Positions 1-38,139 of a stretch of 64,000 nt of DNA are shown here, piece by piece (the first letter of the stretch is position 1; each line of letters opens with the position of its first letter). The notes beneath the pieces were generated by a model. It did no database searches. It worked only from the letters and a program-made list of their open reading frames with translations, and had not been told where the DNA came from. The translations under genes and the position numbers were made by a program. This DNA comes from Thermoanaerobaculia bacterium. Its GTDB lineage: Bacteria; Acidobacteriota; Thermoanaerobaculia; UBA5066. The stretch is from positions 144,784 through 208,783 of the forward strand of contig JASNYI010000002.1 of assembly GCA_048500275.1 (NCBI GenBank). Reading direction: 5' to 3'.

Positions 1-2071
1 GCCGGCCGCGCCGGTCGACGGCGCGCGCCTCGAGGACGTAGTCCCCCGGAGGGAGCCGCTCCCACCGGGGCGACCGGGCCGTGCGCGGACGAGAGAAGGT
101 CGTCTCGAGGGGTGCGAGCCGCCAGGAGAAGCGCACGCCCCGCGGGTCGGTGAAGTCGATCGCGGCGAGCTCGAACTCGGCGCCCCTGCCGTCCGGCGTT
201 CGCGCCGCACGCTCGACGGCGAGGATCGGCGGCGGCGGGGCGGGCTCGTCTGCCGAGGGGTCGTATCGGACGAGAGCCCCGACGAGGCCGAACCAGAGTC
301 GCCCCCGGGCGTCGAGGAGCGCGGAGCGGACGATTCCCTCCTGCGCGGGGAGGCCGTCGGCGAGGCCGTAGCCACGGCCCGGCCTTCCGTCGGGAGTCAC
401 GACGACGATCCCGCGGTCGGTCGACAGCCAGACGTTCCCCGCCGGGTCGCCGAGGAGGGCGTCGACCGAGTCGTCGGGCAGCCCGGCGGCGGAGTCGTAG
501 AAGCGGACCTCCCCGGTCCTTCCGAAGCGGACCGCGCCATGGATCGACGCGGCCCAGACGGCGCCATCGGCCGCGCGGGTGAGGTCCCAGGGAGGCTCGC
601 CCCGGAAGTGGGACGAGGTCAGCCCGATGAGCCGCGCCTTGCCGGTGACGGTGTCGAGCTCGTAGACGGCTCCGCGGGACGCGAAGAGCAGCCCGCCCGC
701 GGGGTCGGAAGCGATCGCGTCGACCGGCACCGTGCCGAGCGGCGGCGGGAGCGGCCGGACGAAGCTCCCCCCCCGAACGGCGAGAAGGCCGCCCGTCGTG
801 CCGAGCCACGACTCCTCCTCGGCGAGGGCGAGGCCGGTGACGGAGAGGCCGGCCGGTGCCGGCAGGACCCGAAACGGCGCTCCGTCGCGCTCGCGCCGGA
901 CGAGGCCTCCCGCGAAGGTCGCGTCGAGGCGCCCCCCGCGGGTGATCGTCAGGTCCCGGAAGCGGTCGGTGCGGGGGAGGCCCTGCGCCGGCCCGAATTG
1001 CTCGAATCGGCCGCCGGAGAGCCGGGCGAGCTCGCCGCGGGCCGTCGTGATCCAGAGGGTCCCGTCTGGCGCCTCGGCGATCCGGAGCGCGATCAGCTCG
1101 CGCAGCCCGGATTCGGGCCCCACGAAGGAGAATCGGGACGGGGCGAAGCGGTAGAGGCCCGAGCCGTCGCCCCCCATCCAGACGTCGCCGCCGCCGCCGT
1201 CGAGGAAGGAGACGACACGCAAGGCCGGAAGGCCGTCTTCGGGTCCGAGCTCTACTGAGCCGGCCGCGGAGTCGAGCCGGACGGCCCCGGCGGAGGTCCC
1301 GACCCAGATGCGCCTGCGGGCGTCGCAGAGGACCGCGGCGATCCTCTCCGCCGGCAGGGCAGCCTGCGCGATGCGCGCCGGACCGGACGGGGGGACCACG
1401 AGGAGCCCCTCTTCGGTCCCGCAGAAGAGCCCTCCTGAGGGAGTCGGGGCCAGGGCGGTCACCGCGGCCGTCACTCCCTCGACCCGCGCGGCGTGGTCCG
1501 CGCCCTCCGCGAGCCGGTAGAGGCCGTCGCGTGCGCCGATCCAGACCCCTCCGGCGTCGGCGGCGACGACGGTCGCTGGCGCGCGGCTCACTTTGCGGCG
1601 GCGGATCTCCCTTCCGGTCGCCTCGAAGCGGGAGAGGCCGCCTGGCCCCGCGGCCCAGACGGCGCCGTCCGGAGAGACTGTCAGGTCGGTGAACGCGTCC
1701 GGGGAGGCGACGACGAGCGAGCCCTCGCGCGTGCGCACCACGAGGCGCCCGACGGCGACCCAGAGGTTCCCGCGCGGGTCGACCGCGAGGTCGGACACGA
1801 CGCGGTCGGTCAGCCCGAACAGCTCGGCGGCCGGACGGAACTCGGCGCCGTCGAACCGCGCCAGACCGCCGTTTCGCGTTCCCACCCAGAGGAAGCCGCT
1901 CGCGTCGCGGGCGAGCGCGGTCACCTGCGACTGCGGCAGACCGTCCCGGTCGTCCCACCGCGCCACGCCGAGACGCTGTCCCATCGCGCTCGGGGCCGCG
2001 AGCGCGAAGACCACCGCCGCGAGGAGCGCTCGAACCCTCCGCGGGGCCGTAGAACGGCTCTTCTCGTTCAG
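1..2071 (-). CDS. Two-component-regulator beta-propeller + Y_Y_Y domain sensor protein (partial; C-terminus beyond window start)
   Basis: Not in the ORF track because it runs off the edge. Manual translation of the minus strand gives a signal-like stretch ([17 protein letters not shown]), then [33 protein letters not shown] propeller repeats, and [14 protein letters not shown] (Y_Y_Y) at nt ~58-2. Start codon uncertain (CTG 2071 or nearby). Confidence 0.85.
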
Positions 2072-5613: not shown

Positions 5614-5653
5614 GGAAAGGAAAGCTCGCGGCGGCCGGCTGGCCGCCGCGAGC
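5614..5653 (-). terminator. Intrinsic terminator of the 5693-6649 gene
   Basis: 13-bp perfect stem GCTCGCGGCGGCC / GGCCGCCGCGAGC with a 4-nt loop, followed on the minus strand by TTTCCTTTCC. Confidence 0.75.
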
Positions 5654-5692
5654 CCTTCCCGGGGGTGGCAGGGACGGGGGGAACGAGGGGGG

Positions 5693-6649
5693 TCAGTCCG
5701 GGATCATGACGACGAGGTACCGGCTGTCGCGCCAGAAGGCGCCGTGGTCGGTCACCTGGAGCGTCGACATGTTCGGTCCGCCGGAGACGATCCGGTAGCT
5801 CTCCTCCGGATGCCCGGGAAGGACTTTCACCTTGTCCGCGGGCGCCGGGATCGCGAGCTGGGCCTCCACCGTCGTGTCGATCTCGCGGAAGACCCCGGGG
5901 TCGTATCTCCCCGTCTCCTGCCAGGCGCCGCCGAGGCCGAGGATCGAGCCCTTCTTCTCGACGAGGCCCTTGTCCTTCAGCACCTTCTTTCCGGCCACCG
6001 CGACGAAGGCCCTGTTGATCTCCTTCGTCTTCGCCTCGATGACGCCGTCCCTCTCCTGGATCAGCGTGTCCTTGGCGAGGAGGAAGCCCTCCTGCACCCG
6101 GACCTTCTCGTCGAGGTCGACGACCGTTTTCTGGAGGGTCGCGATCGTCGTGTCCTTCTCTTCCAGCGACCGCTTCAGCTCGTCCACGAGCTTCTGGAGG
6201 GAGGCCACTCTCTGGCCGCTCGCCCGCCGCTCCTTCTCGAGGCGCGCGAGCTTGCCGAGGTTCTCGCGGATGGCGGTCCGAATCGTCCCGAGCTCGTCGG
6301 CGAGGATCTCGCGCGTCGAGACCCGGGTCTGCCCTTCGCGGGTGACGTCGAGCGTCCGCTTCAGGATCTTGAGCTCCTGGCCGCGGATCTCCTCGAGCCC
6401 GGCCTGGACTTCCGCGATCGTCGCGGCGGCCTCCGCGTCGGCGGTCTCGGCCGCCTGCAGCTGCTGCGTGAGCCGGGCGTTCTCCTCGGTCAGGATCTGG
6501 TTGCGCTCGTCGAGAGCCTGGTTCGCGGAATCCGAACGGCTTCCCAGGTCCTTCCCGGAGCAGCCGCCGAGAGAGAGGACGACCGCGAGGAGCGGGGCGA
6601 GAGCGAGGGGAAGGGGGGAGCGTCTGTCGTCAGCTGATTTGATCCTCAT
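5693..6649 (-). CDS. Coiled-coil lipoprotein resembling the Cbp1-type (Bacteroidota) adhesin family
   Basis: AGGAGG RBS, ATG 6649, lipobox LSLGGC, long heptad coiled coil, C-terminal domain AFVAVAGKKVLKDKGLVEKKG...GHPEESY...FWRDSRYLVV. Family assignment from remembered similarity. Confidence 0.8.
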   Translation of the reverse strand: MRIKSADDRRSPLPLALAPLLAVVLSLGGCSGKDLGSRSDSANQALDERNQILTEENARLTQQLQAAETADAEAAATIAEVQAGLEEIRGQELKILKRTLDVTREGQTRVSTREILADELGTIRTAIRENLGKLARLEKERRASGQRVASLQKLVDELKRSLEEKDTTIATLQKTVVDLDEKVRVQEGFLLAKDTLIQERDGVIEAKTKEINRAFVAVAGKKVLKDKGLVEKKGSILGLGGAWQETGRYDPGVFREIDTTVEAQLAIPAPADKVKVLPGHPEESYRIVSGGPNMSTLQVTDHGAFWRDSRYLVVMIPD

Positions 6650-6674
6650 GGGGACCTCCTCGCGATCTCGCCTT

Positions 6675-6689
6675 TCAAGACGCGGGCCA
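6675..6689 (-). promoter_or_regulatory. Possible sigma-54 promoter (-24/-12) for the lipoprotein gene
   Basis: Minus strand TGGC-CCGCGTC-TTGA: correct N7 spacing but GA instead of GC at -12; 25 bp upstream of the ATG. Confidence 0.4.
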
Positions 6690-6797
6690 GGGGCCGGGGC
6701 GGAAAGTGCGACGGCCGGAAGACCAGCGACTCGAACGGCTTGCGCGCAGCGCGTCCGGCCCTCGCGCGGCCGGGCTCGCTCCGTGAGGGCCGGGTGA

Positions 6798-6812
6798 CGG
6801 AAAGACTTTCCG
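6798..6812. promoter_or_regulatory. Palindromic candidate enhancer (bEBP upstream activating sequence)
   Basis: Perfect inverted repeat CGGAAAG-A-CTTTCCG; further CGGAAAG half-sites at 6700-6706 and 6818-6824. Confidence 0.45.
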
Positions 6813-6931
6813 AGCGGCGGAAAGGAAGGCCCGTGCGTCTGCCCGCGCGGCCGGCCGGCGAACCGCCCCGGCGGTCCGGACGCCTCGCGGGAAGCACCCC
6901 TCCGGCTTGCTCGGGCTGATAACGTCGGGCC

Positions 6932-28242: not shown

Positions 28243-28638
28243 ATGACCTCCGTGAAGGTCCGCGCGGTTTGTCCCGCCTGCGGCCGCCCCGCCTCGTCGC
28301 CCGGCCGCTCCGAGTGCCTCTACTGCGGCGCACCGCTGACGGCGGTCGTCACCGGAACCGTCTCGGCGGCCGGGAGCGGGAAGCCGGTGACGGTGGCGCC
28401 GGAGAATCTCAGGAGCCCCGGTCCCGTATCGCTGGCGACCCCGGTACCCCCCCCGGCCGCGAAGCCGGCCTGGATGAGATACGAGGCCGAGGAGCGGCCC
28501 GTTGCCCGCTTCTTCGAGAGCGGCTGGGTCCGCTTCTTCCTCGTCGTCGCGTTCGTCCTCGCGGGCATCCTGGCCATCGCGAAGCTCATCGACGACCACA
28601 GGCCGCCGGGGTTCGTGCAGGATCCCGTGGAGCGGTGA
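28243..28638 (+). CDS. Zinc-ribbon + Pro-rich linker + C-terminal TM small protein
   Basis: CPACG...CLYCG and TM FFLVVAFVLAGILAIA. Start ATG 28243 or GTG 28252. Confidence 0.7.
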   Translation: MTSVKVRAVCPACGRPASSPGRSECLYCGAPLTAVVTGTVSAAGSGKPVTVAPENLRSPGPVSLATPVPPPAAKPAWMRYEAEERPVARFFESGWVRFFLVVAFVLAGILAIAKLIDDHRPPGFVQDPVER

Positions 28639-28756
28639 CCGGCGGCGACGCGCTGCGCCCTGTCTCGGGCTCTGCGGTCCCCGGCGTCCGGGTCGGCTCG
28701 CAGTGCCCCGGATGAGGACGGAGGGGCGGCCGCCCCTCCGTCCCCCGGTCCTCTTC

Positions 28757-30685
28757 TCAGGCCGTCGCTTCCGCGACCTGCTCCTTTCGCCCGGTCATCA
28801 GCGAGACGACGACGAGGACGAGGAACCCGAGCGGGATCGTGACGATGGCCGGCTGGCTGAACGGCACGAGCGCCCCCGCCGGGTCGAGCCCGTAGACGTC
28901 CTTGAACGCCTGAGCGCTCAGGAGGATCCAGGCGAGCGACGAGACCATGCCGACGAGGATGGCGGCCGTGATTCCCTGCTTGGTCGTCCGCTTCCAGAAG
29001 AGGAGCATGACGAGCGACGGCAGGTTGGCCGAGGCCGCGATGTTGAACGCCCAGCCGACGAGGAAGTTGACGTTCATCTTCGCGAAGAGGATGCCGAGGA
29101 CGATGGCCAGCGCCCCGACGCACATCGCAGCGACCTTGGCCGAGCGGACCTTTCGCGCGTCGTCCATCTTCATCTTGAGGAAGTTCGTCATCAGGTCGTG
29201 CGCCACGGCGCCGCTGGCGGCCATGATCAGTCCCGAGACGGTGCCGAGGACGGTCGTGAACGCCACGGCGGAGATGACCGCGAAGAGGAGCTCGTTGAAG
29301 CTCCGGGCCAGGAGGGGGGCCGCCATGTTCGAGTCGGTGACGTCGAGGGTCCCGGAGGTCATGGCGCCGAGCCCGAGATAGAGCGTGAGGACGTAGAAGA
29401 ATCCGATCGCCGCGATCCCGACGACCGTGCTCTTGCGGGCGCTGGCCTGGTCCTTGACGGTGTAGTAGCGGATCAGGATGTGCGGCAGGGAGGCCGTGCC
29501 GCAGAAGAGGGCGAGCATGAGAGAGAGGAAGTCGAGCTTGTCGCCGAGCTTCTCGCTGCGCACCTTGCGGAAGGTCGGGCTCGAACCGGGGGTCATGAAG
29601 TCCCGACCCTCGGTCGGCTTCTGGAAGTAGACCGTCGTCGCGCCCCCGCCCGGCTCGGCGATCTTTTCGCTGCCCCAGAGGACGATCTCGCTGTCCTGCA
29701 TGGTCTGGAGGAACGAGATCGGACCAAGCGGTCCGGTCTCGGTCGCGCCGCCCGGCAGGCGCGAGGCGTGCCCGACCGGGATCAGGTCGCCCTCGCCGGG
29801 GCCCTTCCCCTGGGGGCGTCCGTTCGCGAGCCGGCGGCCGTTCGGAAGGACGGTCAGCGTCTGGGCCACGTCGAGGGCCCCGCCTTCGGACCGGCGCCAG
29901 ACCGTCACGAGCCCCGTCGCCTCGTCGCGCACGCGGACGTACGGCTTCCCAACCCAACCACCCTCCTCGGGGAGGACCGTGACCCCGGGGGCGCCGGTCA
30001 CCTCGGCCGCGGGCACGCCCCGCCGGAGCGAAGCGGCCCCGTTGGCGTCGTCCCCGGCGTCGGGCGTCCGGATGCCGCGGTAGAGGATCATCAGCGTCAT
30101 CAGGAAGCAGAGGGCCACGAGGGCCGAGCCCTTGATGAACTGGACCCACGTCGTCGAGACCATGCCGGCGGTCGTCACGATCAGCGTGACGACGCAGCCG
30201 ACGATCAGGACGCCGACCCAGTGCGGGAAGCCGAGCAGGGGCGTGACGAGGGCGCCCGCGCCGACCATCTGCGGGATCAGGTAGAAGCAGCTCACGACGA
30301 GCGTGCTGATGGCGGCCGCCAGCTTGATGCCGCGCGAGTTGAACTTGTTGTCGAGGGCGTCGGCGAAGGTGTAGCGGCCGAGGCGCTTCATCGGCTCGGC
30401 GACGATGAAGAGAGCCACGATCCAGCCGGCGAGGTAGCCGATGGAGTAGAGGAACCCGTCGTAGCCGAAAAACGCGATCATCCCGCAGATGCCGAGGAAC
30501 GACGCGGCCGAGAGGTAGTCCCCGGCGAAGGCGATGCCGTTGACGGCCCAGTGGATCCCGCCCCCGGCCGCGAAGTAGCCCTGGGCCGACTTCGCCTTCC
30601 CGCCGAGGTAGAAGCTGATCGCCAGCACGGCGCCTGCGAAGAGGAGGAAGACCCCGATCGCGACGGCCGAGGAGGCGTGGATCAC
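28757..30685 (-). CDS. actP: Cation/acetate symporter (SSS family) with enlarged extracytoplasmic loop
   Basis: NGIAFAGDYLSAASFLG, GYDGFLYSIG, YLIPQMVGAG, GTASLPHILIRYYTV. Start overlaps the DUF485 stop. Confidence 0.93.
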   Translation of the reverse strand: MIHASSAVAIGVFLLFAGAVLAISFYLGGKAKSAQGYFAAGGGIHWAVNGIAFAGDYLSAASFLGICGMIAFFGYDGFLYSIGYLAGWIVALFIVAEPMKRLGRYTFADALDNKFNSRGIKLAAAISTLVVSCFYLIPQMVGAGALVTPLLGFPHWVGVLIVGCVVTLIVTTAGMVSTTWVQFIKGSALVALCFLMTLMILYRGIRTPDAGDDANGAASLRRGVPAAEVTGAPGVTVLPEEGGWVGKPYVRVRDEATGLVTVWRRSEGGALDVAQTLTVLPNGRRLANGRPQGKGPGEGDLIPVGHASRLPGGATETGPLGPISFLQTMQDSEIVLWGSEKIAEPGGGATTVYFQKPTEGRDFMTPGSSPTFRKVRSEKLGDKLDFLSLMLALFCGTASLPHILIRYYTVKDQASARKSTVVGIAAIGFFYVLTLYLGLGAMTSGTLDVTDSNMAAPLLARSFNELLFAVISAVAFTTVLGTVSGLIMAASGAVAHDLMTNFLKMKMDDARKVRSAKVAAMCVGALAIVLGILFAKMNVNFLVGWAFNIAASANLPSLVMLLFWKRTTKQGITAAILVGMVSSLAWILLSAQAFKDVYGLDPAGALVPFSQPAIVTIPLGFLVLVVVSLMTGRKEQVAEATA

Positions 30686-30966
30686 GACGCCCCTCCCGTG
30701 GTCGACTTGCGGCTGATCACCAGATAGAGGAGCGCCAGGACGAGAGCCGCAACGATCAGCGCGAAACCGTAGGAGACCGAGAGGTTCACACCTCCGAGGA
30801 ACGGCCGGCCCATGACCTCCGGCCGGAAGGCCGAGAGGGCCATGAAGCCCCCGTAGAAGAGGACATAGACCGCGAAGAGCCCCACGCCCAGCCGCGAGTT
30901 GTAGGCGACGACGTGAGCCTCTTCCTGCTCCGCCGCACCGGTTGCCTTGAAGTCGAGTCCGCCCAT
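30682..30966 (-). CDS. DUF485 (YjcH-like) small membrane partner of ActP
   Basis: Two TM helices (LGVGLFAVYVLFYGGFMAL; GVNLSVSYGFALIV), directly upstream of actP. Confidence 0.85.
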   Translation of the reverse strand: MGGLDFKATGAAEQEEAHVVAYNSRLGVGLFAVYVLFYGGFMALSAFRPEVMGRPFLGGVNLSVSYGFALIVAALVLALLYLVISRKSTTGGAS

Positions 30967-31023
30967 GGTCCCTCCCCCGTTCGCTCTCCGGACGTCGCAC
31001 GTCCGCCTCGTGAGCAGCGAGGC

Positions 31024-31053
31024 AGCGTATCCGCGCGGCGCGCGAGCTGTCAA
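31024..31053 (-). promoter_or_regulatory. Sigma-70-type promoter for DUF485-actP
   Basis: TTGACA (31053-31048), 18-nt spacer, TACGCT (31029-31024). Confidence 0.55.
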
Positions 31054-31169
31054 CGAACGAGATGTCCAGATACGTGCGATCTCGACGTCCGAACAGGACT
31101 GGACCGGGGCTGATGGCCCGGTCCGGCCCGTCGGGGGAGGGAGCGGGGCCGCGGCGGGCCCCGAACGCG

Positions 31170-34100
31170 TCAGCCCGTCCCGCCGAGGAGCTCGAAGCGC
31201 GTCCGGCTCTGCACCGCCTCGATGGCGGCGAAGCCCTGCTTGAGGAGCGTGAGCTCGGTGGCGGAGAGGCGGGCGAGCGGGACCAGGTTGTCGGGCGCCT
31301 GGCCCGCAAGTACCTGCGACACCTGGTGGCGCAGCCTGAGGCGCATCATCAGGTCGAAGGCCGCGACGACGTCGTCACAGGTGGCGGCCGGGAGCGCCTC
31401 GAGGCCGACGAGCCCCTTCAGCCGCCCGGTGGTGCTGCTCTCGGCGAGACCGTGCCGGAGCGCGAAGACGCGGGCGAAGGTCGCGATGGGGAGCGCGGCG
31501 TCCTTGAGGTCGAGGCGGCCGGCGTGCTCCCCTCCCGCGCCGCCCGGCAGGATCCTCCCGAAGAGGCGCACCGGCGGGCGGAACTCCAGGGAGCTCTGCG
31601 CGAGGCGCGGCAGGAAGTCGGGGGCGGCGCCGACCGTCGCGTGGATGTCCCGACGCAGGTCCGTCACCAGGGCGCCGTTGCCGGTCACCGCCCGGAGGTC
31701 GAAGAAGATGCTCAGCTCGACGAGCTGCCTGGGGGTCGATTCGCGGATCCAGCGCCGGAAGGTCTCCTTCCAGGCGTCGAGCGAGAGGCACCAGGCCGGG
31801 TTGCTGGCCATGACGTCGCCGCGGCAAGCCCGGTAGCCGGCCTGGTCCAGCCAGCCGCACGCGAGCCGGCCGAGGCGGGTGAAGTAGCCCCTCAGGGCGT
31901 CCTCGTCGGCTCCCTCCGGCGGGGCGAAGACGATGGCGTTGTCCTGGTCGGTCGCGAGCGTCTGCTCGTGACGGGCCTGGCTCCCCATGGCGAAGAAGGC
32001 GAAGTCGCACGGGGGCGGGCCGAGCTCGGTCGTGGCGAGGGCGACGAGCCGCTCGCCGGCGGCGTCGGAGACCGAGGCGATCATCCGCGTGAGGTGCCGC
32101 GGCAGGGCGTCGCAGCGCAGGAGCGTCGCCACGAGGCCCGCCGTCCGCCGGCAGAGGCGCACGACCTCCTCGACCGTCCCGGCGCGGGCGATCTCCCGGG
32201 CCAGGACGAGCGCCCCGTAGCTCTGGAACTGCAGCAGCGTCGCGACGTCGACGGCGCCGACGACCTGCCCCTCGGCGTCCTCTACCACGAGGTGGCGGAC
32301 GCGGTGCTCCTCCATCGCCTGGAGGGCCTCGTACACCGGGGCGTCGTCGAGGAGGGTGTGGAGCGGTGCGGACATGACGCGGCGCACGGGCGCCCGGGCG
32401 TCGCCGAGAGCGGCGGAGAGGCCGCGCCGGATCTCCCGGTCGGTCACGAGGCCCAGCGGCTCGCCCTTCTCGGACTGGACGACGACGGCGGTCGTCGAGG
32501 CGGGGGAGAGCATCTCGGCCGCCGCGACGACCGTCGTGTCGGGGAGGCAGAACGCCACCGGGTGGACGACCTCCCGCACGGGCTCGGAGAGGAACGAGAG
32601 CGAGCTGCGCAGCCGTTCGAGCATCGCGTCCCTCTCGGCGTCCTGCCGGGTCCGCGCCGTCACGTCCTGAAGGACGGCGTCGACGAAGGCGGGCTCTCCG
32701 GCCTCGTCCCGGGCGAGAGAGGCCGTGAGTGCGAGCGCCCTGGCCTCGCCGTCCAGCGTCGCGACGTAGAGGGTGCGGCGCGCCACCTCTTCCGCGAGGA
32801 GCTCCTCGCGGAGCGTGTCGAGGTCGCGGTCGTCGGTCAGGAGGTCGGCCAGGGCGGGCGGGTCGTCGCCGGCCGCGCCCCGAAGCGAGCCCAGGATCGC
32901 GGCGGCCGCCGGGTTCGCTTCGACGATCGCGCCGCGCCGCGCGAACCGGGCCCGGAGAAGACCCATCGGGACGCCGCGGGCGACGGGCCCGAGGTCGGAG
33001 GCGTCCGGGGCGCCGGCCCGCCCGCGCGGGGAGCCCGCCGACACCTCGCGCGCGTTCAGGATGAAGCCACGTTCTCCGGCGAAGGTGATCGCCGAGACCG
33101 AAAGGACGCACTCGACGAGCCGGCCGTCCCGGCTCCGGAGGGCGCCGTCCACGCTCCCGGCGACGTCCTCGCCGTCGTTCACGCGCGCCACGGCCGACCA
33201 GACCCTCTCGTTCCCCGACCCGGAGGGGAGGAGGTCCTCGAGGTCGTAGAGCTCGAGCTCCGCGGCCGAGTAGCCGAGGAGGCGCAGGAGGACGGGGTTG
33301 GCGTACCGGAGCCGCCCGTCGAGGACGAGGAGCGTCCCTTCCGTGGCGGCCTCGACGAGCGACCGGTAGCGTCGCGTCGACCTCCTCAGCCCGTCCTCGG
33401 CGCGCGAGCGTTCCCGCTCGAGGGCGAGCCCTTCCCGCATGACCCAGCCGAGGAGGAGCGCGAGGAGCGCGGCGATGCCGAGGGCCACCCGGTACCCGTT
33501 CCGCTCGATCCTCGCGATCTCGGCCTTCACGTCGTCGAGGTAGAGGCCCGTCCCGATGACCCATCCCCACGGCGCGAAGCCCCGGACGTAGGACTCCTTC
33601 GGAGCCATCCGCCCCGGGTCGTCCTTCCACTGCCAGACGTACTCGATGGTGCCCTCGCCCTGCCGGCGGACGAGCTGCGCGAACTCGACGAAGATGCGTA
33701 CGCCCCGCGGGTCGCGAAATTCGGAGACGTCCTGCCCTTCGAGGTCCCGGCGCCAGGGGTGCATGACGATGCGCGGGTGCATGTCCTGCAGCCAGAAGTA
33801 GTCCTTTCCCTCGCGGCCGTAGCGCAGGGCTGAGATCCGGGCGCGGGCCAGCTCCTGCGCCTGGGCACGGTCGTAGCGCCCTTCCCGCTCCCCGGCCTCG
33901 ATCTCGGCGAGGAGGCTGAAGGCCGAGGCGACGAGCTCGCGGATCGTCTCCCGCTTGCGGTCGAGGAGAGAGCGCTCGAACGACGGGAGGAGGAAACCGA
34001 AGATGGCCGCGACGAAGAGCGCCAGGGCGAGGAGCGATGGCAGGAGGATGTGGAGGGCGAAGTGGCGCCGCATCGACCGGCGTGTCGTCGATTCGGCGGG

Positions 34101-34868
34101 TCCGGCCTCGTCCGGGGTGCCCGGGGCCTTCGGACCGGGGACCCTGAGCAGGCTCCGGAAGTCCTTCCAGGCGTCCACCGGCACCTCGACGCCGAGCCTC
34201 TCGTTCTCCTCGGGGCCGTGGACGTCCGACCCGGCGCTCACCGCCAGTCCGAGCTCGCGGGCGAGACCGGCGAGCTCGGACTGGCGGGACCCGGAGTAGC
34301 CGGAGTAGCGGGCCTCGAGGCCGTCGAGGCCGAGCTCTTTCAGGCGCACCAGGAGCGGGCGGAGGCTCTCGACGTCGGGACGGACCGTGAAGGGGTGCGC
34401 CAGGAAGACCCGTCCCCCGGCGTCGTGGAGGAGGCGGATCGCCGCCTCGGCGGAGATCCGTCCGCTCGCGGCTCCGCCGGGGCGCTCTGCGCCTCCCGTC
34501 GCGGGACGGTCGAGACGGCGCAGGGCGTCGGCGAGGCTCCCGTTCTCGGGCTCGGCGCTCGGCGGGTGCCTGCCCCACGTTTCGACGATGCCGGGATCCG
34601 CCGGGTCGAAACCCCAGGAGAGCAGGTGGATCTCCTCCTCGCCGAAGGAGACCGTCGCCTCGAGCCCGGGGACGAAGGCGACGCCGCGGCGCGCGAGCGC
34701 CTCGCGGAACGCGGGGAGCCCCTCCACGGTGTCGTGGTCGGTCAGCGACGCGACGACGACCCCCGAGTCGGCCAGCTGGTCGGCCAGCGCCTCGGGCCCG
34801 AGGGCGCCGTCGCTGGCGGTCGAGTGGCAGTGCAGCTCGACGCGGATCGTGGCCCGGTCCGTCGTCAT
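31170..34868 (-). CDS. PHP phosphoesterase - TM - sCache_2 - TM - PAS - PAS - CBS pair - DUF294 nucleotidyltransferase - DUF294_C fusion protein
   Basis: PHP: ELHCHSTASDG, LTDHDT, GLEA, IHLL, LAHP, GSDVHG. Cache: ALRYGREGKDYFW...VMHP...WGWVIGTGLYLDD. Two PAS-like segments, a CBS pair, and NTase MGSQARHEQTLATDQDN. One uninterrupted 1232-aa ORF. Confidence 0.9.
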   Translation of the reverse strand: MTTDRATIRVELHCHSTASDGALGPEALADQLADSGVVVASLTDHDTVEGLPAFREALARRGVAFVPGLEATVSFGEEEIHLLSWGFDPADPGIVETWGRHPPSAEPENGSLADALRRLDRPATGGAERPGGAASGRISAEAAIRLLHDAGGRVFLAHPFTVRPDVESLRPLLVRLKELGLDGLEARYSGYSGSRQSELAGLARELGLAVSAGSDVHGPEENERLGVEVPVDAWKDFRSLLRVPGPKAPGTPDEAGPAESTTRRSMRRHFALHILLPSLLALALFVAAIFGFLLPSFERSLLDRKRETIRELVASAFSLLAEIEAGEREGRYDRAQAQELARARISALRYGREGKDYFWLQDMHPRIVMHPWRRDLEGQDVSEFRDPRGVRIFVEFAQLVRRQGEGTIEYVWQWKDDPGRMAPKESYVRGFAPWGWVIGTGLYLDDVKAEIARIERNGYRVALGIAALLALLLGWVMREGLALERERSRAEDGLRRSTRRYRSLVEAATEGTLLVLDGRLRYANPVLLRLLGYSAAELELYDLEDLLPSGSGNERVWSAVARVNDGEDVAGSVDGALRSRDGRLVECVLSVSAITFAGERGFILNAREVSAGSPRGRAGAPDASDLGPVARGVPMGLLRARFARRGAIVEANPAAAAILGSLRGAAGDDPPALADLLTDDRDLDTLREELLAEEVARRTLYVATLDGEARALALTASLARDEAGEPAFVDAVLQDVTARTRQDAERDAMLERLRSSLSFLSEPVREVVHPVAFCLPDTTVVAAAEMLSPASTTAVVVQSEKGEPLGLVTDREIRRGLSAALGDARAPVRRVMSAPLHTLLDDAPVYEALQAMEEHRVRHLVVEDAEGQVVGAVDVATLLQFQSYGALVLAREIARAGTVEEVVRLCRRTAGLVATLLRCDALPRHLTRMIASVSDAAGERLVALATTELGPPPCDFAFFAMGSQARHEQTLATDQDNAIVFAPPEGADEDALRGYFTRLGRLACGWLDQAGYRACRGDVMASNPAWCLSLDAWKETFRRWIRESTPRQLVELSIFFDLRAVTGNGALVTDLRRDIHATVGAAPDFLPRLAQSSLEFRPPVRLFGRILPGGAGGEHAGRLDLKDAALPIATFARVFALRHGLAESSTTGRLKGLVGLEALPAATCDDVVAAFDLMMRLRLRHQVSQVLAGQAPDNLVPLARLSATELTLLKQGFAAIEAVQSRTRFELLGGTG

Positions 34869-35158
34869 CTCCCGGCGGCCCTCCCGATTCGTCCCGGTCT
34901 CACCGTCCGACTCCTCTCACGTCCCGGTCGTCGCGAGCGGAACGGACAACTGTACTGCGAACGGGGGCCGGCGTCGCGGAGATGCGCCCACGGCCGGGCC
35001 CCGGTCCCGGCGACGGGCCCGGGGCACCGACGGCTCTGCGCTCTCCCGGAGCGGCGGGCCTAGAATGGCCGGGACGCGGCTTGTGCGAGGCGGGACGCGG
35101 GGATCGCGACCGTCGCCCCTTCGGACGCGGAGGCAGGGATGACCGAACGGAGGAGGAC

Positions 35159-36619
35159 GTGACGGCCCACGGCGGGACGGTCCTCGTCGTCGACGACGAC
35201 CCCGTGAACCGGGCGATCCTCGTCGGGAGCCTCGAGGCCCAGGGGTACGCCGCCGGAGTCGCCTCCGACGGGCGCGAAGCGCTCCGGGAGCTTCGACTCG
35301 GCGGGTACGACGTCGTCCTCCTCGACCTCGTCATGCCGGTGATGGACGGTTTCGAGGTCCTCCGGACGATGAAGGAGGACGAGAGGCTGCGCTCGCTCCC
35401 CGTCATCGTCGTCTCGGCGCTCGAGGAGATGGAGAGCGTCGTCCGCTGTATCGAGATGGGGGCGGCCGACTTCCTCGCCAAGCCCTTCGACCCGGTCCTG
35501 CTCCGGGCGCGGCTGAAGTCGTCGCTCGCGGCCAAGCGGCTCGACGACGTCCTCCTCGCGCACGTGGCCGAGATCGAGGGGCTGGCCGAGCAGCTGAAGG
35601 TGAGGAACCGCTTCATCCAGGAGACGTTCGGCCGCTACCTCTCCGACGCCGTGGTGGCGGAGATCCTGGAGTCGCCGGACGGACTCAGGCTCGGCGGCGA
35701 GAAGCGGACCGTGACCATGCTCATGTCCGACCTCCGGGGCTTCTCGGCGATGGCCGAGCGGCTCGCGCCGGAGCAGGTCGTGAGGGTCATCAACAACTAC
35801 CTCGGGACGATGGCCGACGTCATCCTCGAGCACGACGGCACGATCGACGAGTTCATCGGCGACTCGGTCCTCGGGTTCTTCGGGGCTCCCGTGGCGCGGG
35901 CCGACGACCCGCGCCGGGCCGTCTCCTGCGCCCTCGCGATGCAGAAGGGGATGGAGCGCGTGAACCGCCGCAACCGCGAAGAGGGCCTGCCCGCCGTGGA
36001 GATGGGGATCGCCGTCCACACGGGCGAGGTCGTCGTCGGGAACATCGGCTCGGAGAAGCGGGCCAAGTACGGCGCTGTGGGGAGCCACGTGAACCTGACG
36101 GCGCGCATCGAGGGCTACACCTGCGGCGGGCAGGTCCTGATCTCCGAGCGGACCCTGCGCGAGGCGGGGGTGGGCCTCGTCACCGGGGGCTCGCTCTCCG
36201 TCCGGGCCAAGGGCTTCCCCGAGCCGGTCCGCGTGCACGACCTGCTGGGCCTCGAGGAGGCCCCCCACCTCCACCTCGGGCGCCGGGGCGAGACCCTCTG
36301 GCCCGTCGACCCGCCCCTCGGCGTCGTCTTCACCGTCCTCGAGGGGAAGCGCGTGGGCCGCGACGAGGAGCCGGCCGAGATCGTCGCCCTCTCGGCGCAC
36401 GGAGCCGTGCTCCGGACCACGATGACGATAGAGGCGCTCTCCAACCTGAAGCTGAGGGTGGCCAGCCCGGAGGGACTCCTCCCGGGCGACCTCTACGCGA
36501 AGGTGCTCCTGCCCGCGGAAGGCGCCGCCGGCGTGACCCGCCTCCGATTCACCTCCGTCCCCGCCGAGCTCGAGCCCCTCTTTTCGAGGTTGGGGTCAGG
36601 TCTTGATTTTCTATTGTAG
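35159..36619 (+). CDS. Response-regulated class III nucleotide cyclase (REC + Cya2-like catalytic domain + PilZ-like C-terminus); guanylyl-cyclase-type residues
   Basis: GGAGGAGG RBS, GTG 35159, intact REC. Catalytic motifs [40 protein letters not shown]. Confidence 0.9.
36592..36615 (-). repeat. 24-bp end motif, copy 1 (left end, inverted relative to copies 2 and 3)
   Basis: GGGGTCAGGTCTTGATTTTCTATT is the reverse complement of AATAGAAAATCAAGACCTGACCCC. Confidence 0.9.
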
Positions 36620-36628
36620 AATCCCGGC

Positions 36629-37576
36629 ATGGCACGACCGCTGAGGCTCGAGCACCCCGGGGCCCTCTGGCACGTCACCGCGCGCGGCAACGAGCGGGGC
36701 GACGTCTTTCGCGACGACGCCGACCGGCGCGAGTTCCTCACCGTCCTCGGGAGGACGGTGACGATCTACGGCTGGCGCCTTCACGCGTACGTCCTGATGG
36801 GAAACCACTACCACCTCCTCGTCGAGACGCCCGAGCCGACGCTCTCTCGCGGGATGCGCGACCTGAACGGCGTCACGACGCAGCGCTTCAACCGGCGCCA
36901 CGGCCGCGCCGGTCACCTCTTCGAGGGGCGCTTCAAGGCGATCCTCGTCGAGAGAGAAGCGCACCTGCTCGAGGTCCTGCGCTACGTCGTCCTGAACCCC
37001 GTGCGGATCGGGCTCGTACGCTCGCCGGCGGCCTGGCCCTGGTCGAGCTACAAGGCGACGGCGGGCCTCGTCGAGGCCCCCGAGTGGCTCGAGACGGAGT
37101 GGACGCTCGAGCAGTTCGGCCGGCGGCCGGCGGAGGCGCGGCGCCGGTTCGCCGCCTTCGTGGCCGACGGGAAGGGCGCGGCGGGGTACGAGCCGTGGAG
37201 CCAGCTCCGCGGGCAGGTGTTCCTCGGCTCCGAAGGGTTCGCGCGGGAGGTGAGCCGGAAGGCGGGCCGGAAGGCGGCGCCGAAGGAGGTCCCGCGGGCC
37301 CAGCGCGAACCGGTGACGCGGGCGCCGGAAGACGTCGCGGCGGCCTTCGCGGCGGCCCGGAGGTGTTCCGTCGAGGAGCTCGTGGCAGCACCGCGCAAGC
37401 GGCTGGTCGACCGGGCGCTGCTCGCCTGGGCGCTCCGCTGCCGAGCCCGGGCCCCGCTCGCCGCGATCGCCGGGATCCTCGACGTCGGCATCGCGCAGGC
37501 CTCGGTCCTCGTCCGCCGGGGCGAGACCCTCTCGGCGGAGGACCCGAAGCTCGCGGCGGTGGTGGAGAAGCTCTGA
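36629..37576 (+). CDS. HUH endonuclease / Y1 transposase (TnpA IS200/RAYT-related) with C-terminal HTH extension
   Basis: MARPLR...[13 protein letters not shown] motif [22 protein letters not shown], catalytic Tyr in [16 protein letters not shown]-terminal HTH-like segment. Confidence 0.92.
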
Positions 37577-38139
37577 TGACCCCGGACCGCCGGCCCCCGG
37601 CTGCCAGCAGTGGCCCGGTCGGCGAGCGCGGCCTCGTCGTCGTCCGGGGGGACATCACGCTCGAGGCGGTCGACGCCATCGTGAACGCCGCGAACCCCTC
37701 GCTCCTCGGGGGCGGGGGCGTCGACGGGGCGATCCACCGCGCCGCCGGGCCGGAGCTTCTCGAGGAGTGCCGCGGTCTCGGCGGATGCCCGCCGGGCGAG
37801 GCACGGATGACGAAGGGCTACAGCCTCCCGGCGCGGCACGTGATCCACACGGTCGGTCCGGTCTGGGAACGCGGCACGGCCGGGGAGGACGAGACCCTCG
37901 CGAGCTGCTACCGCGAGTCGCTCCGGCTCGCGGAGGAGGCGGGGCTCTCGAGCGTGGCCTTCCCGTCGATCTCGACCGGCATCTACGGATTCCCCGTCGA
38001 GCGGGCGGCCCGCGTCGCCGTCCGTGAGGTCCGCACCTTTCTCGCCGTGGCGAGGAGCGTCCACCTCGTGAAGATCGTGACGTTCAGCGCGCACGACCTC
38101 GAGGTCTACGGCGCCGCGGCCGCCCGGTCTTCGCTGTAA
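37576..38139 (+). CDS. Macrodomain O-acetyl-ADP-ribose deacetylase / ADP-ribosyl hydrolase (YmdB-like)
   Basis: [60 protein letters not shown] overlap with the transposase stop. Confidence 0.93.

Follow-up and report, generated by a model that had tools for sequence, protein, structure and literature searches.

The window analyzed here, a stretch of 64,000 nucleotides, carries on its reverse strand a long gene (P0001) followed by genes for a small membrane protein and a sodium:solute symporter (Table 1). Translation of the long reading frame and searches of Pfam and NCBIfam confirmed the original prediction of a single protein with the arrangement PHP-TM-sCache_2-TM-PAS-PAS-CBS-DUF294-DUF294_C, encoded directly upstream of DUF485-actP on the same strand, as well as showing that the locus has neither a cNMP domain nor an exonuclease gene. 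The reading frame starts with ATG, which we regard as sound because the N-terminus lines up with those of homologues. The likely start of DUF485 is the ATG at 30966, with an RBS, and the symporter begins with a GTG at 30685 that shares bases with the stop codon of DUF485 (GTGA). The symporter is 90% identical in genus relatives and has a predicted periplasmic insert of ~180 amino acids, conserved in linked ActPs; its matches to the NCBIfam MctC/ActP models fall under the equivalog cut-offs.

Table 1. Features of the receptor gene and its downstream neighbors.
Feature	Position in window	Strand	Residues	Evidence
Receptor gene (P0001), 1232 aa	31170..34868	(-)		ORF, translation, Pfam, NCBIfam
PHP phosphoesterase domain, YciV/RNase AM/Cv1693 type, predicted cytoplasmic, shortened insertion ("lid")	34152..34847	(-)	8-239	
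PHP-TM1 linker, Pro/Gly/Ala-rich	34065..34151	(-)	240-268	Conservation profile
TM1	33984..34064	(-)	about 269-295	Hydropathy scan, sequence
sCache_2 domain, periplasmic	33501..33983	(-)	296-456	Pfam (303-456), E 5e-36
TM2	33420..33500	(-)	about 457-483	Hydropathy, conservation
PAS domain 1	33039..33374	(-)	499-610	Pfam PAS (500-608), PAS_8, PAS_9; TIGR00229
PAS domain 2	32634..32939	(-)	644-745	Pfam PAS_4 (644-741)
CBS pair	32214..32558	(-)	771-885	Pfam CBS x2 (about 775-881)
DUF294 Pol-beta-type NTase	31731..32147	(-)	908-1046	Pfam, E 4e-43
DUF294_C helical domain (HEPN clan), predicted substrate-binding	31194..31622	(-)	1083-1225	Pfam, E 3e-34
DUF485 (YjcH-like) small membrane protein	30682..30966	(-)		Pfam DUF485
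ActP/MctC-like sodium:solute symporter, 642 aa	28757..30685	(-)		Pfam SSF

A hydropathy scan found two hydrophobic segments, about 270-297 and 458-483, on either side of sCache_2, as noted before. The motif RRSMRR lies just N-terminal of TM1 (positive-inside), and TM2 runs through a conserved helix into PAS1. The CBS pair was matched by CBS-pair structures in a PDB sequence search, and Foldseek matches included AMP/ATP-bound CBS pairs. We read the protein as a membrane receptor with a cytoplasmic nucleotidyltransferase (NTase) and a cytoplasmic phosphoesterase, which probably senses external acetate-like acids.

The full architecture was found in about 110 (>100) full-length protein clusters of 40–93% identity from at least 14 phyla. 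The PHP-fused receptor occurs at 54 genome loci, and two genus relatives have the same fusion, one of them 81% identical over residues 1-1231. With so many independent full-length clusters and loci to vouch for it, the fusion is neither an artefact nor a singleton. The suggested co-occurrence with actP was also seen, DUF485-ActP lying ≤3 kb from the receptor in roughly 45 of the 52 informative loci with fused PHP and in two different gene orders; the genus relatives having the receptor gene also retain this link. No transporter was found nearby in seven PHP-fused loci with full flanks, nor in the P0067 loci. The full arrangement is conserved across many phyla beside DUF485-ActP.

The Pfam match to PHP covers residues 11-82 only, and NCBIfam and PDB sequence searches showed a complete domain in two halves, of the YciV/TrpH type. 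Its top PDB sequence matches were RNase AM (7UG9, E 1e-23) and the 3',5'-nucleoside bisphosphate phosphatase Cv1693 (2YB1, E 2.5e-22). These were also the best matches by fold, since an AF2 model (pLDDT 87.6, with the insertion subdomain at low confidence) gave 7UG9, 9ETK and 2YB1 as its top Foldseek hits, with Pol III PHP domains also among the matches. The PHP barrel is shared, and all nine metal ligands of Cv1693 align with residues here (H13, H15, D20, H45, E70, H81, H158, D215, and H217) that are invariant or ≥90% conserved across 53 homologues, in line with the prediction that the ligands are retained. In contrast to RNase AM and Cv1693, this PHP is joined to a membrane receptor and its insertion is ~40 amino acids shorter, as it also is by comparison with the stand-alone YciV-like protein of its own genome; its score of 115 bits falls well short of the NCBIfam equivalog cut-offs (400 bits). 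No segment of the protein is less conserved than the linker to TM1 (top-residue frequency averaging 0.33, against 0.76 in Cache), and this poor conservation, with the Pro/Gly-rich composition of the linker, suggests that PHP is tethered only, without gating by the sensor. From its conserved residues we predict a catalytically intact YciV-type domain, which a flexible linker holds at the cytoplasmic face of the membrane.

The closest PDB matches of the Cache domain were the acetate-bound Adeh_3718 (4K08, E 1e-34) and PscD (5G4Y, E 2e-32), and it also matched the MctS sensor model NF052443 of NCBIfam (E 3e-23). The ligand-contacting pocket residues of the acetate/propionate sensor PscD have been described (PMC5062169), and seven of seven are kept here (Y357, W359, H370, F393, Y410, W412, and K424) and are invariant in homologue alignment A1. 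The pocket is therefore predicted to be of the C2/C3-carboxylate (acetate/propionate) type, which supports the carboxylate sensing originally proposed for this domain. PscD (5G4Y/5G4Z), McpP and Adeh_3718 likewise have a periplasmic sCache_2 between two TM helices; sCache_2 chemoreceptors, however, end in an MCP signaling domain, whereas the output here is a nucleotidyltransferase and a phosphoesterase. At some related loci an sCache_2 histidine kinase adjoins.

The NTase has the motif G962-S963-x2-R966-x-E968-x5-D974-Q-D976-N, with D1057 further downstream; all of these positions are invariant across 23 homologues and, over 72, ≥90% conserved, confirming the intact GS..R.EQ...DQD motif noted before. 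Its AF2 model (pLDDT 86) had as top Foldseek matches the Legionella DrrA/SidM AMPylation domain in DrrA-Rab8a (6YX5_B, E 2.5e-9) and both domains of GlnE (1V4A and 3K7D), a likeness that is moderate (TM about 0.5–0.66, identity 13–17%). The modeled transferase is most like the protein AMPylators DrrA and GlnE, and by its motif the NTase appears catalytically intact and GlnE/DrrA-like, with a helical substrate-binding domain; the predicted GlnD/GlnE-like writer is supported in this form. We found no biochemical result for any DUF294 protein in the literature.

GlnD (uridylyltransferase/uridylyl-removing) and GlnE (adenylyltransferase/adenylyl-removing) share with the receptor a Pol-beta NTase and a helical domain of the same Pfam clan, DUF294_C being related at this level to their C-terminal domains (PMC3710099). 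In each of them, too, a single chain combines a writer and an eraser with domains that sense small molecules, a parallel to the receptor with its candidate eraser. Unlike them, the receptor has neither an HD domain nor a second NTase, PHP being the candidate eraser, and it is membrane-bound with an extracellular sensor. The GlnD/GlnE targets PII and glutamine synthetase are not those of the receptor, and neither GlnD nor GlnE was found in the genome of the window. DrrA writes and the de-AMPylase SidD erases, with separate folds that are unrelated to each other, as in the candidate pair here, but DrrA is a secreted effector acting on host Rab, has no sensor domains and shares 13% identity.

We surveyed the phosphoesterase partner at 80 genome loci, 54 with fused PHP and 26 without. 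An adjacent DEDDh, Metallophos or GAF-HD gene was found at none of the 54 PHP-fused loci, whilst among the PHP-less loci the neighbor was Metallophos in 18, DEDDh in 2 and GAF-HD in 1. DEDDh is encoded next door in relatives or fused at the same N-terminal position as PHP, and the DEDDh-TM-Cache-...-DUF294 fusion was seen in at least 21 protein clusters. The Metallophos partners are calcineurin-like and resemble YfcE/MJ0936 phosphodiesterases, the DEDDh partners are DnaQ-like and the HD partner is of HD_5 type. On the NTase tree the partner types cluster strongly, with 6 changes as opposed to a shuffled mean of 21.8. PHP thus appears to occupy the place taken in the canonical module by the exonuclease, as had been proposed, and to interchange with DEDDh, Metallophos and HD. 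This exchange, with DEDDh at the N-terminal position of PHP, supports the logic of a writer and an eraser.

The canonical module is the COG2905 type (P. aeruginosa PA3233/PA3232; P. fluorescens Pflu5625), which shares with the receptor the CBS, DUF294 and DUF294_C core, the catalytic motif and the obligatory presence of a phosphoesterase or nuclease partner. It adjoins ActP/DUF485, other sodium:solute symporters or acs, as the receptor adjoins a symporter. It has a cytoplasmic cNMP-binding domain and a separate gene for a DEDDh exonuclease (RNase_T/DnaQ-like), whereas the receptor is transmembrane, with a periplasmic sCache_2 and two PAS domains instead, and with PHP fused N-terminally. The same genome holds, on another contig, a canonical cNMP-CBS-DUF294 and DEDDh exonuclease pair (C1:825059-827658), and a second cNMP-CBS-DUF294 beside acs, also on a contig other than that of the receptor. 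Propionate co-induces PA3232-PA3235 (PMC9765439); the CrbS/R acetate regulon includes Pflu5625, deletion of which gave no acetate growth phenotype (PMC5715377). Cofitness has been reported between a symporter and a neighboring COG2905/RNase T gene (10.1101/072470).

The reading that we favor, with roughly an even chance of being correct, is a ligand-gated membrane NTase with a tethered phosphoesterase that reversibly nucleotidylates a protein. The Cache domain would bind a C2/C3 monocarboxylate (acetate, propionate, pyruvate or glycolate), and the signal would pass from TM2 along the conserved helix to both PAS domains; at the CBS pair it would be combined with a signal from adenine nucleotides. 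The combined signals would set the activity of the NTase, which would move NMP onto a protein. The likeliest target is a protein that forms part of, or regulates, the co-encoded DUF485-ActP-type symporter or solute symporters generally. PHP, nearby yet probably ungated, would hydrolyze the nucleotidyl phosphodiester again, so that the level of modification would track writer activity.

To our knowledge, known members of the DEDDh exonuclease, YciV-type PHP and YfcE-like Metallophos families act on nucleic acids or nucleotides, and we know of no protein de-nucleotidylase among them. The same partner enzymes would also fit a nucleotide-signal synthase/phosphodiesterase pair, or tailing and trimming of RNA 3' ends. 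In the former case, which we consider rather unlikely, DUF294 would make a small signal derived from nucleotides (such as an oligonucleotide, whether linear or cyclic, or a dinucleoside polyphosphate) when external carboxylate is sensed and PHP would degrade it, as DEDDh, Metallophos or HD would in relatives, after the manner of GGDEF/EAL and CD-NTase/nuclease pairs. In every partner fold there are enzymes that break down nucleotides or short oligonucleotides, the substrates of RNase AM and Cv1693 are pAp and 5'-P oligoribonucleotides, and the partners have no sensor domains, as expected of a constitutive degrading enzyme. However, in structure the NTase lies closest to protein AMPylators rather than to cGAS/CD-NTase or poly(A)/CCA enzymes, a GlnD/GlnE-type helical substrate-binding domain is present, and the neighborhood holds a transporter instead of a conserved effector or receptor candidate.

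Among Pol III proofreading exonucleases, PHP and DEDDh stand in for each other. This precedent, the exonuclease-type partners and the speculation of Price et al. that the COG2905/RNase T gene is required to express the adjacent symporter (10.1101/072470) would suit an NTase that extends the 3' end of an RNA, such as the transporter mRNA or a small RNA, with PHP or DEDDh trimming it and so governing expression of the neighboring symporter. We hold this to be improbable, as a membrane anchor and gating by an extracellular ligand better suit control of a membrane protein than of RNA, Metallophos and HD are atypical as 3'-exonucleases, the NTase is nearest to GlnE and DrrA, and the window showed no conserved RNA element. 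Membership in the YciV/TrpH family could also make PHP an ordinary housekeeping pAp/nanoRNA phosphoesterase, fused to the sensor and functionally unconnected to the NTase; we strongly disfavor this, as the genome and nearly all related genomes searched keep a separate stand-alone YciV-like gene, the fusion is conserved over many phyla, and other phosphoesterases appear exactly where PHP is missing. Long spurious reading frames do arise on several frames in high-GC DNA, but an assembly or gene-calling artefact that merged separate PHP and sensor genes is rejected as next to impossible by the clusters, loci and two genus relatives with the same fusion and by domains that all score well over the Pfam cut-off in this frame.

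Reversible nucleotidylation of a protein by the receptor would share its physiological theme, monocarboxylate uptake, with MctS/MctR-MctP and CrbS/CrbR-ActP, the carboxylate-sensing two-component systems that govern monocarboxylate transporters. In those systems control is transcriptional, whereas the receptor has no kinase, receiver or DNA-binding output, and its control would be post-translational or nucleotide-based. The receptor belongs, as a variant, with the known, biochemically uncharacterized module of COG2905/DUF294 plus exonuclease.

The receptor gene encodes a single polypeptide in which a PHP domain, an sCache_2 domain and two PAS domains precede a CBS pair, the DUF294 nucleotidyltransferase (NTase) and DUF294_C. 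Hydrophobic segments bracket the Cache domain, and Arg-rich stretches precede TM1 and follow TM2, which places the PHP domain and everything after TM2 in the cytoplasm and the Cache domain in the periplasm. Pfam, NCBIfam and PDB sequence searches agreed with the original prediction on the ORF, its domains, the NTase motif and the downstream genes wherever these were tested. Two absences noted in that prediction were also confirmed: the receptor had no Pfam match to the cNMP_binding domain of the canonical DUF294 architecture, carrying PHP-TM-sCache_2-TM-PAS-PAS instead, and there was no DEDDh exonuclease gene at the locus.

Features of the receptor gene, its surroundings in the window and the canonical locus on contig C1 of the same genome
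Feature	Position	Strand	Remarks
Receptor ORF	31170-34868	-	1232 residues
PHP	residues 11-82		Pfam
TM1	residues ~270-297		hydrophobic segment
sCache_2	residues 303-456		Pfam
TM2	residues ~458-483		hydrophobic segment
PAS	residues 500-608		Pfam
PAS_4	residues 644-741		Pfam
CBS, two motifs	residues ~775-881		Pfam; directly before NTase
DUF294 (PF03445)	residues 908-1046		Pfam E 4e-43
DUF294_C (PF10335)	residues 1083-1225		Pfam E 3e-34
DUF485 gene	likely start 30966	-	directly 3' of receptor gene
ActP/MctC-like symporter	28757-30685	-	GTG start overlaps DUF485 stop codon
REC-cyclase gene	34982-36619	+	divergent; REC + class III adenylate/guanylate cyclase
Y1_Tnp gene	36629-37576	+	IS200-like Y1 transposase-family protein (Pfam)
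Macro-like ORF	~37560-38139	+	by eye; after Y1_Tnp gene
Canonical acetate locus	C1:816867-830673		ORF reading; order: AcuB-like CBS protein, acetyl-CoA synthetase, cNMP-CBS-DUF294, porin-like protein, VC_2705-type symporter, DEDDh exonuclease overlapping second cNMP-CBS-DUF294, histidine kinase, sigma-54 response regulator

Searching 5.8 billion proteins gave 229 matches to the receptor. Cache and DUF294 were present in all of the best 120, and PHP was present too, full length, in about 110 of them (identity 40-93%). Among species-representative genomes, at least 584 loci carried a receptor relative; the best 80 were examined, and the whole architecture is not necessarily common to all 584. 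Cache-PAS-CBS-DUF294 was found at all 80, with an N-terminal PHP domain at 54 (PHP-fused), the other 26 starting at TM1 (PHP-less). The PHP-fused loci belonged to Armatimonadota, Chloroflexota, Verrucomicrobiota, Lentisphaerota, Sumerlaeota, Acidobacteriota, Methylomirabilota, Gemmatimonadota, Planctomycetota, Kiritimatiellia and Treponema, and the PHP-less loci to Bacteroidota, Ignavibacteriota, Myxococcota/'Deltaproteobacteria', Thermodesulfobacteriota, Elusimicrobiota and Leptospirales. The concern that the fusion might be an assembly artefact or a singleton is answered by the full-length PHP-bearing relatives and the 54 genome loci; judged by sequence, it is neither.

Within the genus the gene was found in 3 of the 17 genomes searched (its own and two relatives), one copy being frameshifted: the orthologue in genus relative G014 (locus L100, G014:C17, 8661-12367) is broken in two by a change of frame around residues 1014-1029, reflecting either pseudogene formation or an error of assembly. 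In the 90% identity cluster of the window protein, one member carries the label Thermoanaerobaculia, a class of Acidobacteriota. When a tree was built from the CBS-NTase part, the window protein was nested in a well-supported PHP-fused clade (SH-aLRT 100) that includes Lentisphaerota, Verrucomicrobiota, Armatimonadota and Chloroflexota sequences, with the two other Acidobacteriota sequences placed away from it. This placement hints at horizontal acquisition of the receptor gene, which we take as a lead only, because of the long branch and the unusual amino-acid composition.

Since the late 1990s the prediction for DUF294/COG2905 proteins has been that they are signal-gated nucleotidyltransferases, and in many bacteria their genes adjoin those of acetate and other solute transporters; to our knowledge the family has no known substrate, product or mechanism that would explain a phenotype. 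We found no biochemical study of any DUF294 protein in the literature. The canonical gene Pflu5625 belongs to the CrbS/R acetate regulon, and its deletion gave no growth defect on acetate (PMC5715377); PA3232-PA3235 were induced about 16-fold on propionate (PMC9765439). DUF4212-type symporters show cofitness with a neighboring 'COG2905 (RNase T domain protein)' gene, a wording that is ambiguous between two genes (Price et al., 10.1101/072470). Reading of translated ORFs revealed a canonical acetate locus in the receptor's own genome, in which one cNMP-CBS-DUF294 gene is paired with an adjoining DEDDh exonuclease gene beside the VC_2705-type symporter and the other lies next to acs; the genome thus holds three DUF294 systems of two kinds. 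The receptor shares with the family the NTase with DUF294_C, the CBS pair and a sodium:solute symporter neighbor, this neighbor being of the DUF485-ActP type, where canonical systems have either ActP/DUF485 or VC_2705/DUF4212. It differs in having a fused PHP domain in the partner role that is otherwise taken by a separate DEDDh gene. As a membrane receptor, it represents a new form of the DUF294 module, which is known but uncharacterised.

The original prediction had noted that PHP appears where the exonuclease is missing, and the PHP-less relatives bear this out. At 18 of the 26 PHP-less loci, a calcineurin-like metallophosphoesterase (Metallophos) gene of about 250 aa lies within the receptor's gene cluster. 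It overlaps the receptor stop codon, lies immediately upstream, is convergent just downstream, or directly follows ActP (locus L068). At one further locus (L061) a DEDDh exonuclease gene precedes the receptor by 19 nt, and in another (L095) a DEDDh domain is fused N-terminally before TM1, in the exact place of PHP in the window protein. This DEDDh fusion is real, since it was found in at least 21 protein clusters (identity 51-72%). At locus L076 a GAF-HD (HD_5) gene (5646-6875) lies 84 nt upstream of a receptor with neither a Metallophos nor a DEDDh neighbor; as a single case, it may represent a fourth partner fold. HD is also the fold with which GlnD removes UMP. No partner was seen at the remaining 5 of the 26, two of which end at a contig edge, and no Metallophos or DEDDh neighbor was seen at any of the 54 PHP-fused loci. 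Partner type required only 6 changes on the tree, against a mean of 21.8 with shuffled labels. Together with the canonical pair of the receptor's own genome, this survey indicates that the DUF294 transferase is accompanied by a phosphodiesterase partner of interchangeable fold. The mutually exclusive replacement of PHP, DEDDh and calcineurin-like enzymes (and once GAF-HD) is strong comparative evidence that the nuclease-like partner is an integral half of the system.

At two loci, L071 (7124-8665) and L075 (10731-12186), the receptor-Metallophos pair is followed directly by an sCache_2-HisKA-HATPase histidine kinase whose Cache domain shares about 58% identity with the one in the adjoining DUF294 receptor, and here the same ligand seems to be read by two different outputs.

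NCBIfam and PDB sequence searches identified the PHP domain as complete and of the YciV/TrpH type, with both halves aligning to RNase AM (7UG9, E 1e-23) and Cv1693 (2YB1, E 2.5e-22), and scoring below the NCBIfam equivalog cut-offs (115 bits vs 400; 94 vs 375). Residues H13, H15, D20, H45, E70, H81, H158, D215 and H217 align to the nine-residue trinuclear metal site of Cv1693 and are conserved in homologues; the Cv1693 ligand numbering of Cummings et al. 2014 matches the alignment with 2YB1. A model of residues 1-245 (pLDDT 87.6) best matched RNase AM, V. cholerae RNase AM and Cv1693, followed by Pol III alpha PHP domains. The insertion subdomain of the fused PHP is about 40 residues shorter than in RNase AM, in Cv1693 and in the stand-alone YciV-like protein of the same genome, and its remainder has low pLDDT at residues 101-138. 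A housekeeping role linked to CoA or pAp was also considered for PHP, given that CoA chemistry yields pAp and that acetate is converted to acetyl-CoA. This was set aside because replacement by DEDDh or Metallophos favours a generic phosphodiesterase role, and because the genome has a separate YciV-like gene. Residues 240-268, which link PHP to TM1, are rich in Pro, Gly and Ala and less conserved than any other stretch of the receptor, unlike the helix after TM2, which is conserved; from this we infer that the sensor signal travels via TM2 to the NTase, PHP being merely tethered.

No part of the receptor is better conserved than the Cache domain. The solved structures nearest to this domain are Adeh_3718, which was crystallised with acetate (E 1e-34), and PscD (E 2e-32), whose ligands are acetate, glycolate, propionate and pyruvate. 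Seven residues contact propionate in PscD: Y90, W92, H103, F126, Y143, W145 and K156 (Brewster et al., PMC5062169). In the PDB-match alignment these correspond to receptor residues Y357, W359, H370, F393, Y410, W412 and K424, all invariant in an alignment with 23 homologues, which strongly suggests that the domain binds a C2/C3 monocarboxylate.

DUF485-ActP lies within 3 kb at about 45 of the 52 PHP-fused loci with usable flanks, and no transporter was found at seven fully flanked ones. The pair is immediately upstream on the same strand at 42 loci and immediately downstream at locus L048, in the window and in the genus relatives; that the linkage is kept despite this change of gene order argues for function, and not for inheritance alone. 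The window symporter fell below the NCBIfam cut-offs for both MctC (413 bits vs 670) and ActP (391 vs 750), the match being split by an insert of about 180 aa (residues ~203-382, between TM6 and TM7), and we read it as a member of a related SSF subfamily with a presumed substrate. Since homologous inserts (27-37% identity) occur in the receptor-linked ActPs of 22 other loci from several phyla, these transporters form a distinct subfamily, with scores under the NCBIfam ActP/MctC cut-offs. The insert, about 100-180 aa across linked ActPs, is predicted to be periplasmic, from TM counting and the positive-inside rule in the window protein.

The divergent REC-cyclase gene was considered as a stand-in for the missing cNMP domain and rejected because it is absent at the equivalent G014 locus and at the other loci; it is probably unrelated to the receptor system. 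Beyond it, the Y1_Tnp gene and the ORF resembling a macro domain lie close to the receptor gene, which is itself patchy in the genus. No RNA families were found by Rfam in the whole window. In a scan of 28500-35200, sigma-70-like sites were not found and the gap from the receptor gene to DUF485 showed no terminator, results of little weight at 73% GC; a TTGACA-17-ATACGC match was seen by eye upstream of DUF485.

The receptor carries an intact NTase motif (G962-S963..R966.E968.....D974.D976, followed farther on by D1057), the residues of which are conserved among homologues. Sequence searches gave no solved structure for the DUF294 part, the matches being to CBS pairs only. An AlphaFold2 model of residues 745-1232 (72 sequences, pLDDT 86, pTM 0.71) was therefore compared by Foldseek: the top match was the AMPylation domain of DrrA with Rab8a (6YX5_B, E 2.5e-9), further matches being the N-terminal domain (1V4A, E 2.8e-9) and adenylylation domain (3K7D, E 2.6e-8) of GlnE, followed by CBS pairs in which adenine nucleotides are bound. 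The Pfam clan of DUF294_C also includes the GlnD and GlnE C-terminal domains (PMC3710099). Going by the fold matches and this clan, the nearest characterised enzymes are all protein nucleotidyltransferases, at a moderate likeness (TM 0.5-0.66, identity 13-17%). No GlnD or GlnE homologue was detected in the genome itself, the sole match to the GlnD_UR_UTase model lying inside a DUF294 paralogue.

The most likely reading, to which we give about an even chance, is a ligand-gated writer that nucleotidylates a protein, with PHP as eraser. An acetate-type ligand outside the cell would act with the PAS and CBS inputs to set the activity of a GlnE/DrrA-like writer; the modified protein would probably be one tied to the DUF485-ActP symporter, and the tethered PHP would take the mark off. 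A pair of nucleotide second-messenger synthase and phosphodiesterase would agree better than writer and eraser with the substrates known for the partner enzyme families, but it fits less well with the NTase's structural relatives and the membrane setting, and we consider it unlikely. Tailing and trimming of RNA 3' ends, which has the same advantage in partner substrates and the same poorer fit to the structural relatives and membrane setting, is quite improbable.

More broadly, we put forward, as a tentative possibility, that these proteins form a widespread, undescribed class of transmembrane receptor, in which an acetate-type ligand gates a GlnE/DrrA-like writer for reversible nucleotidylation of the DUF485-ActP symporter or a partner of it, with erasers drawn from at least three to four unrelated phosphoesterase folds (PHP, DEDDh, calcineurin-like and possibly HD). 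If reversible nucleotidylation is correct, PHP and DnaQ-fold enzymes would be the first protein de-nucleotidylases of their kind, and the DUF294/COG2905 family would gain a function. The membrane variant offers three handles on the DUF294 problem and an unusually testable entry to it: acetate, propionate or pyruvate as the predicted ligand; a writer and an eraser, both predicted, that share one polypeptide and have catalytic residues that can be identified; and DUF485-ActP as the predicted client operon. The outcome would be significant either way: a protein-NMP adduct would mean a new class of receptor output and post-translational control of nutrient uptake in at least 14 phyla, and a free nucleotide would mean a new second-messenger system.
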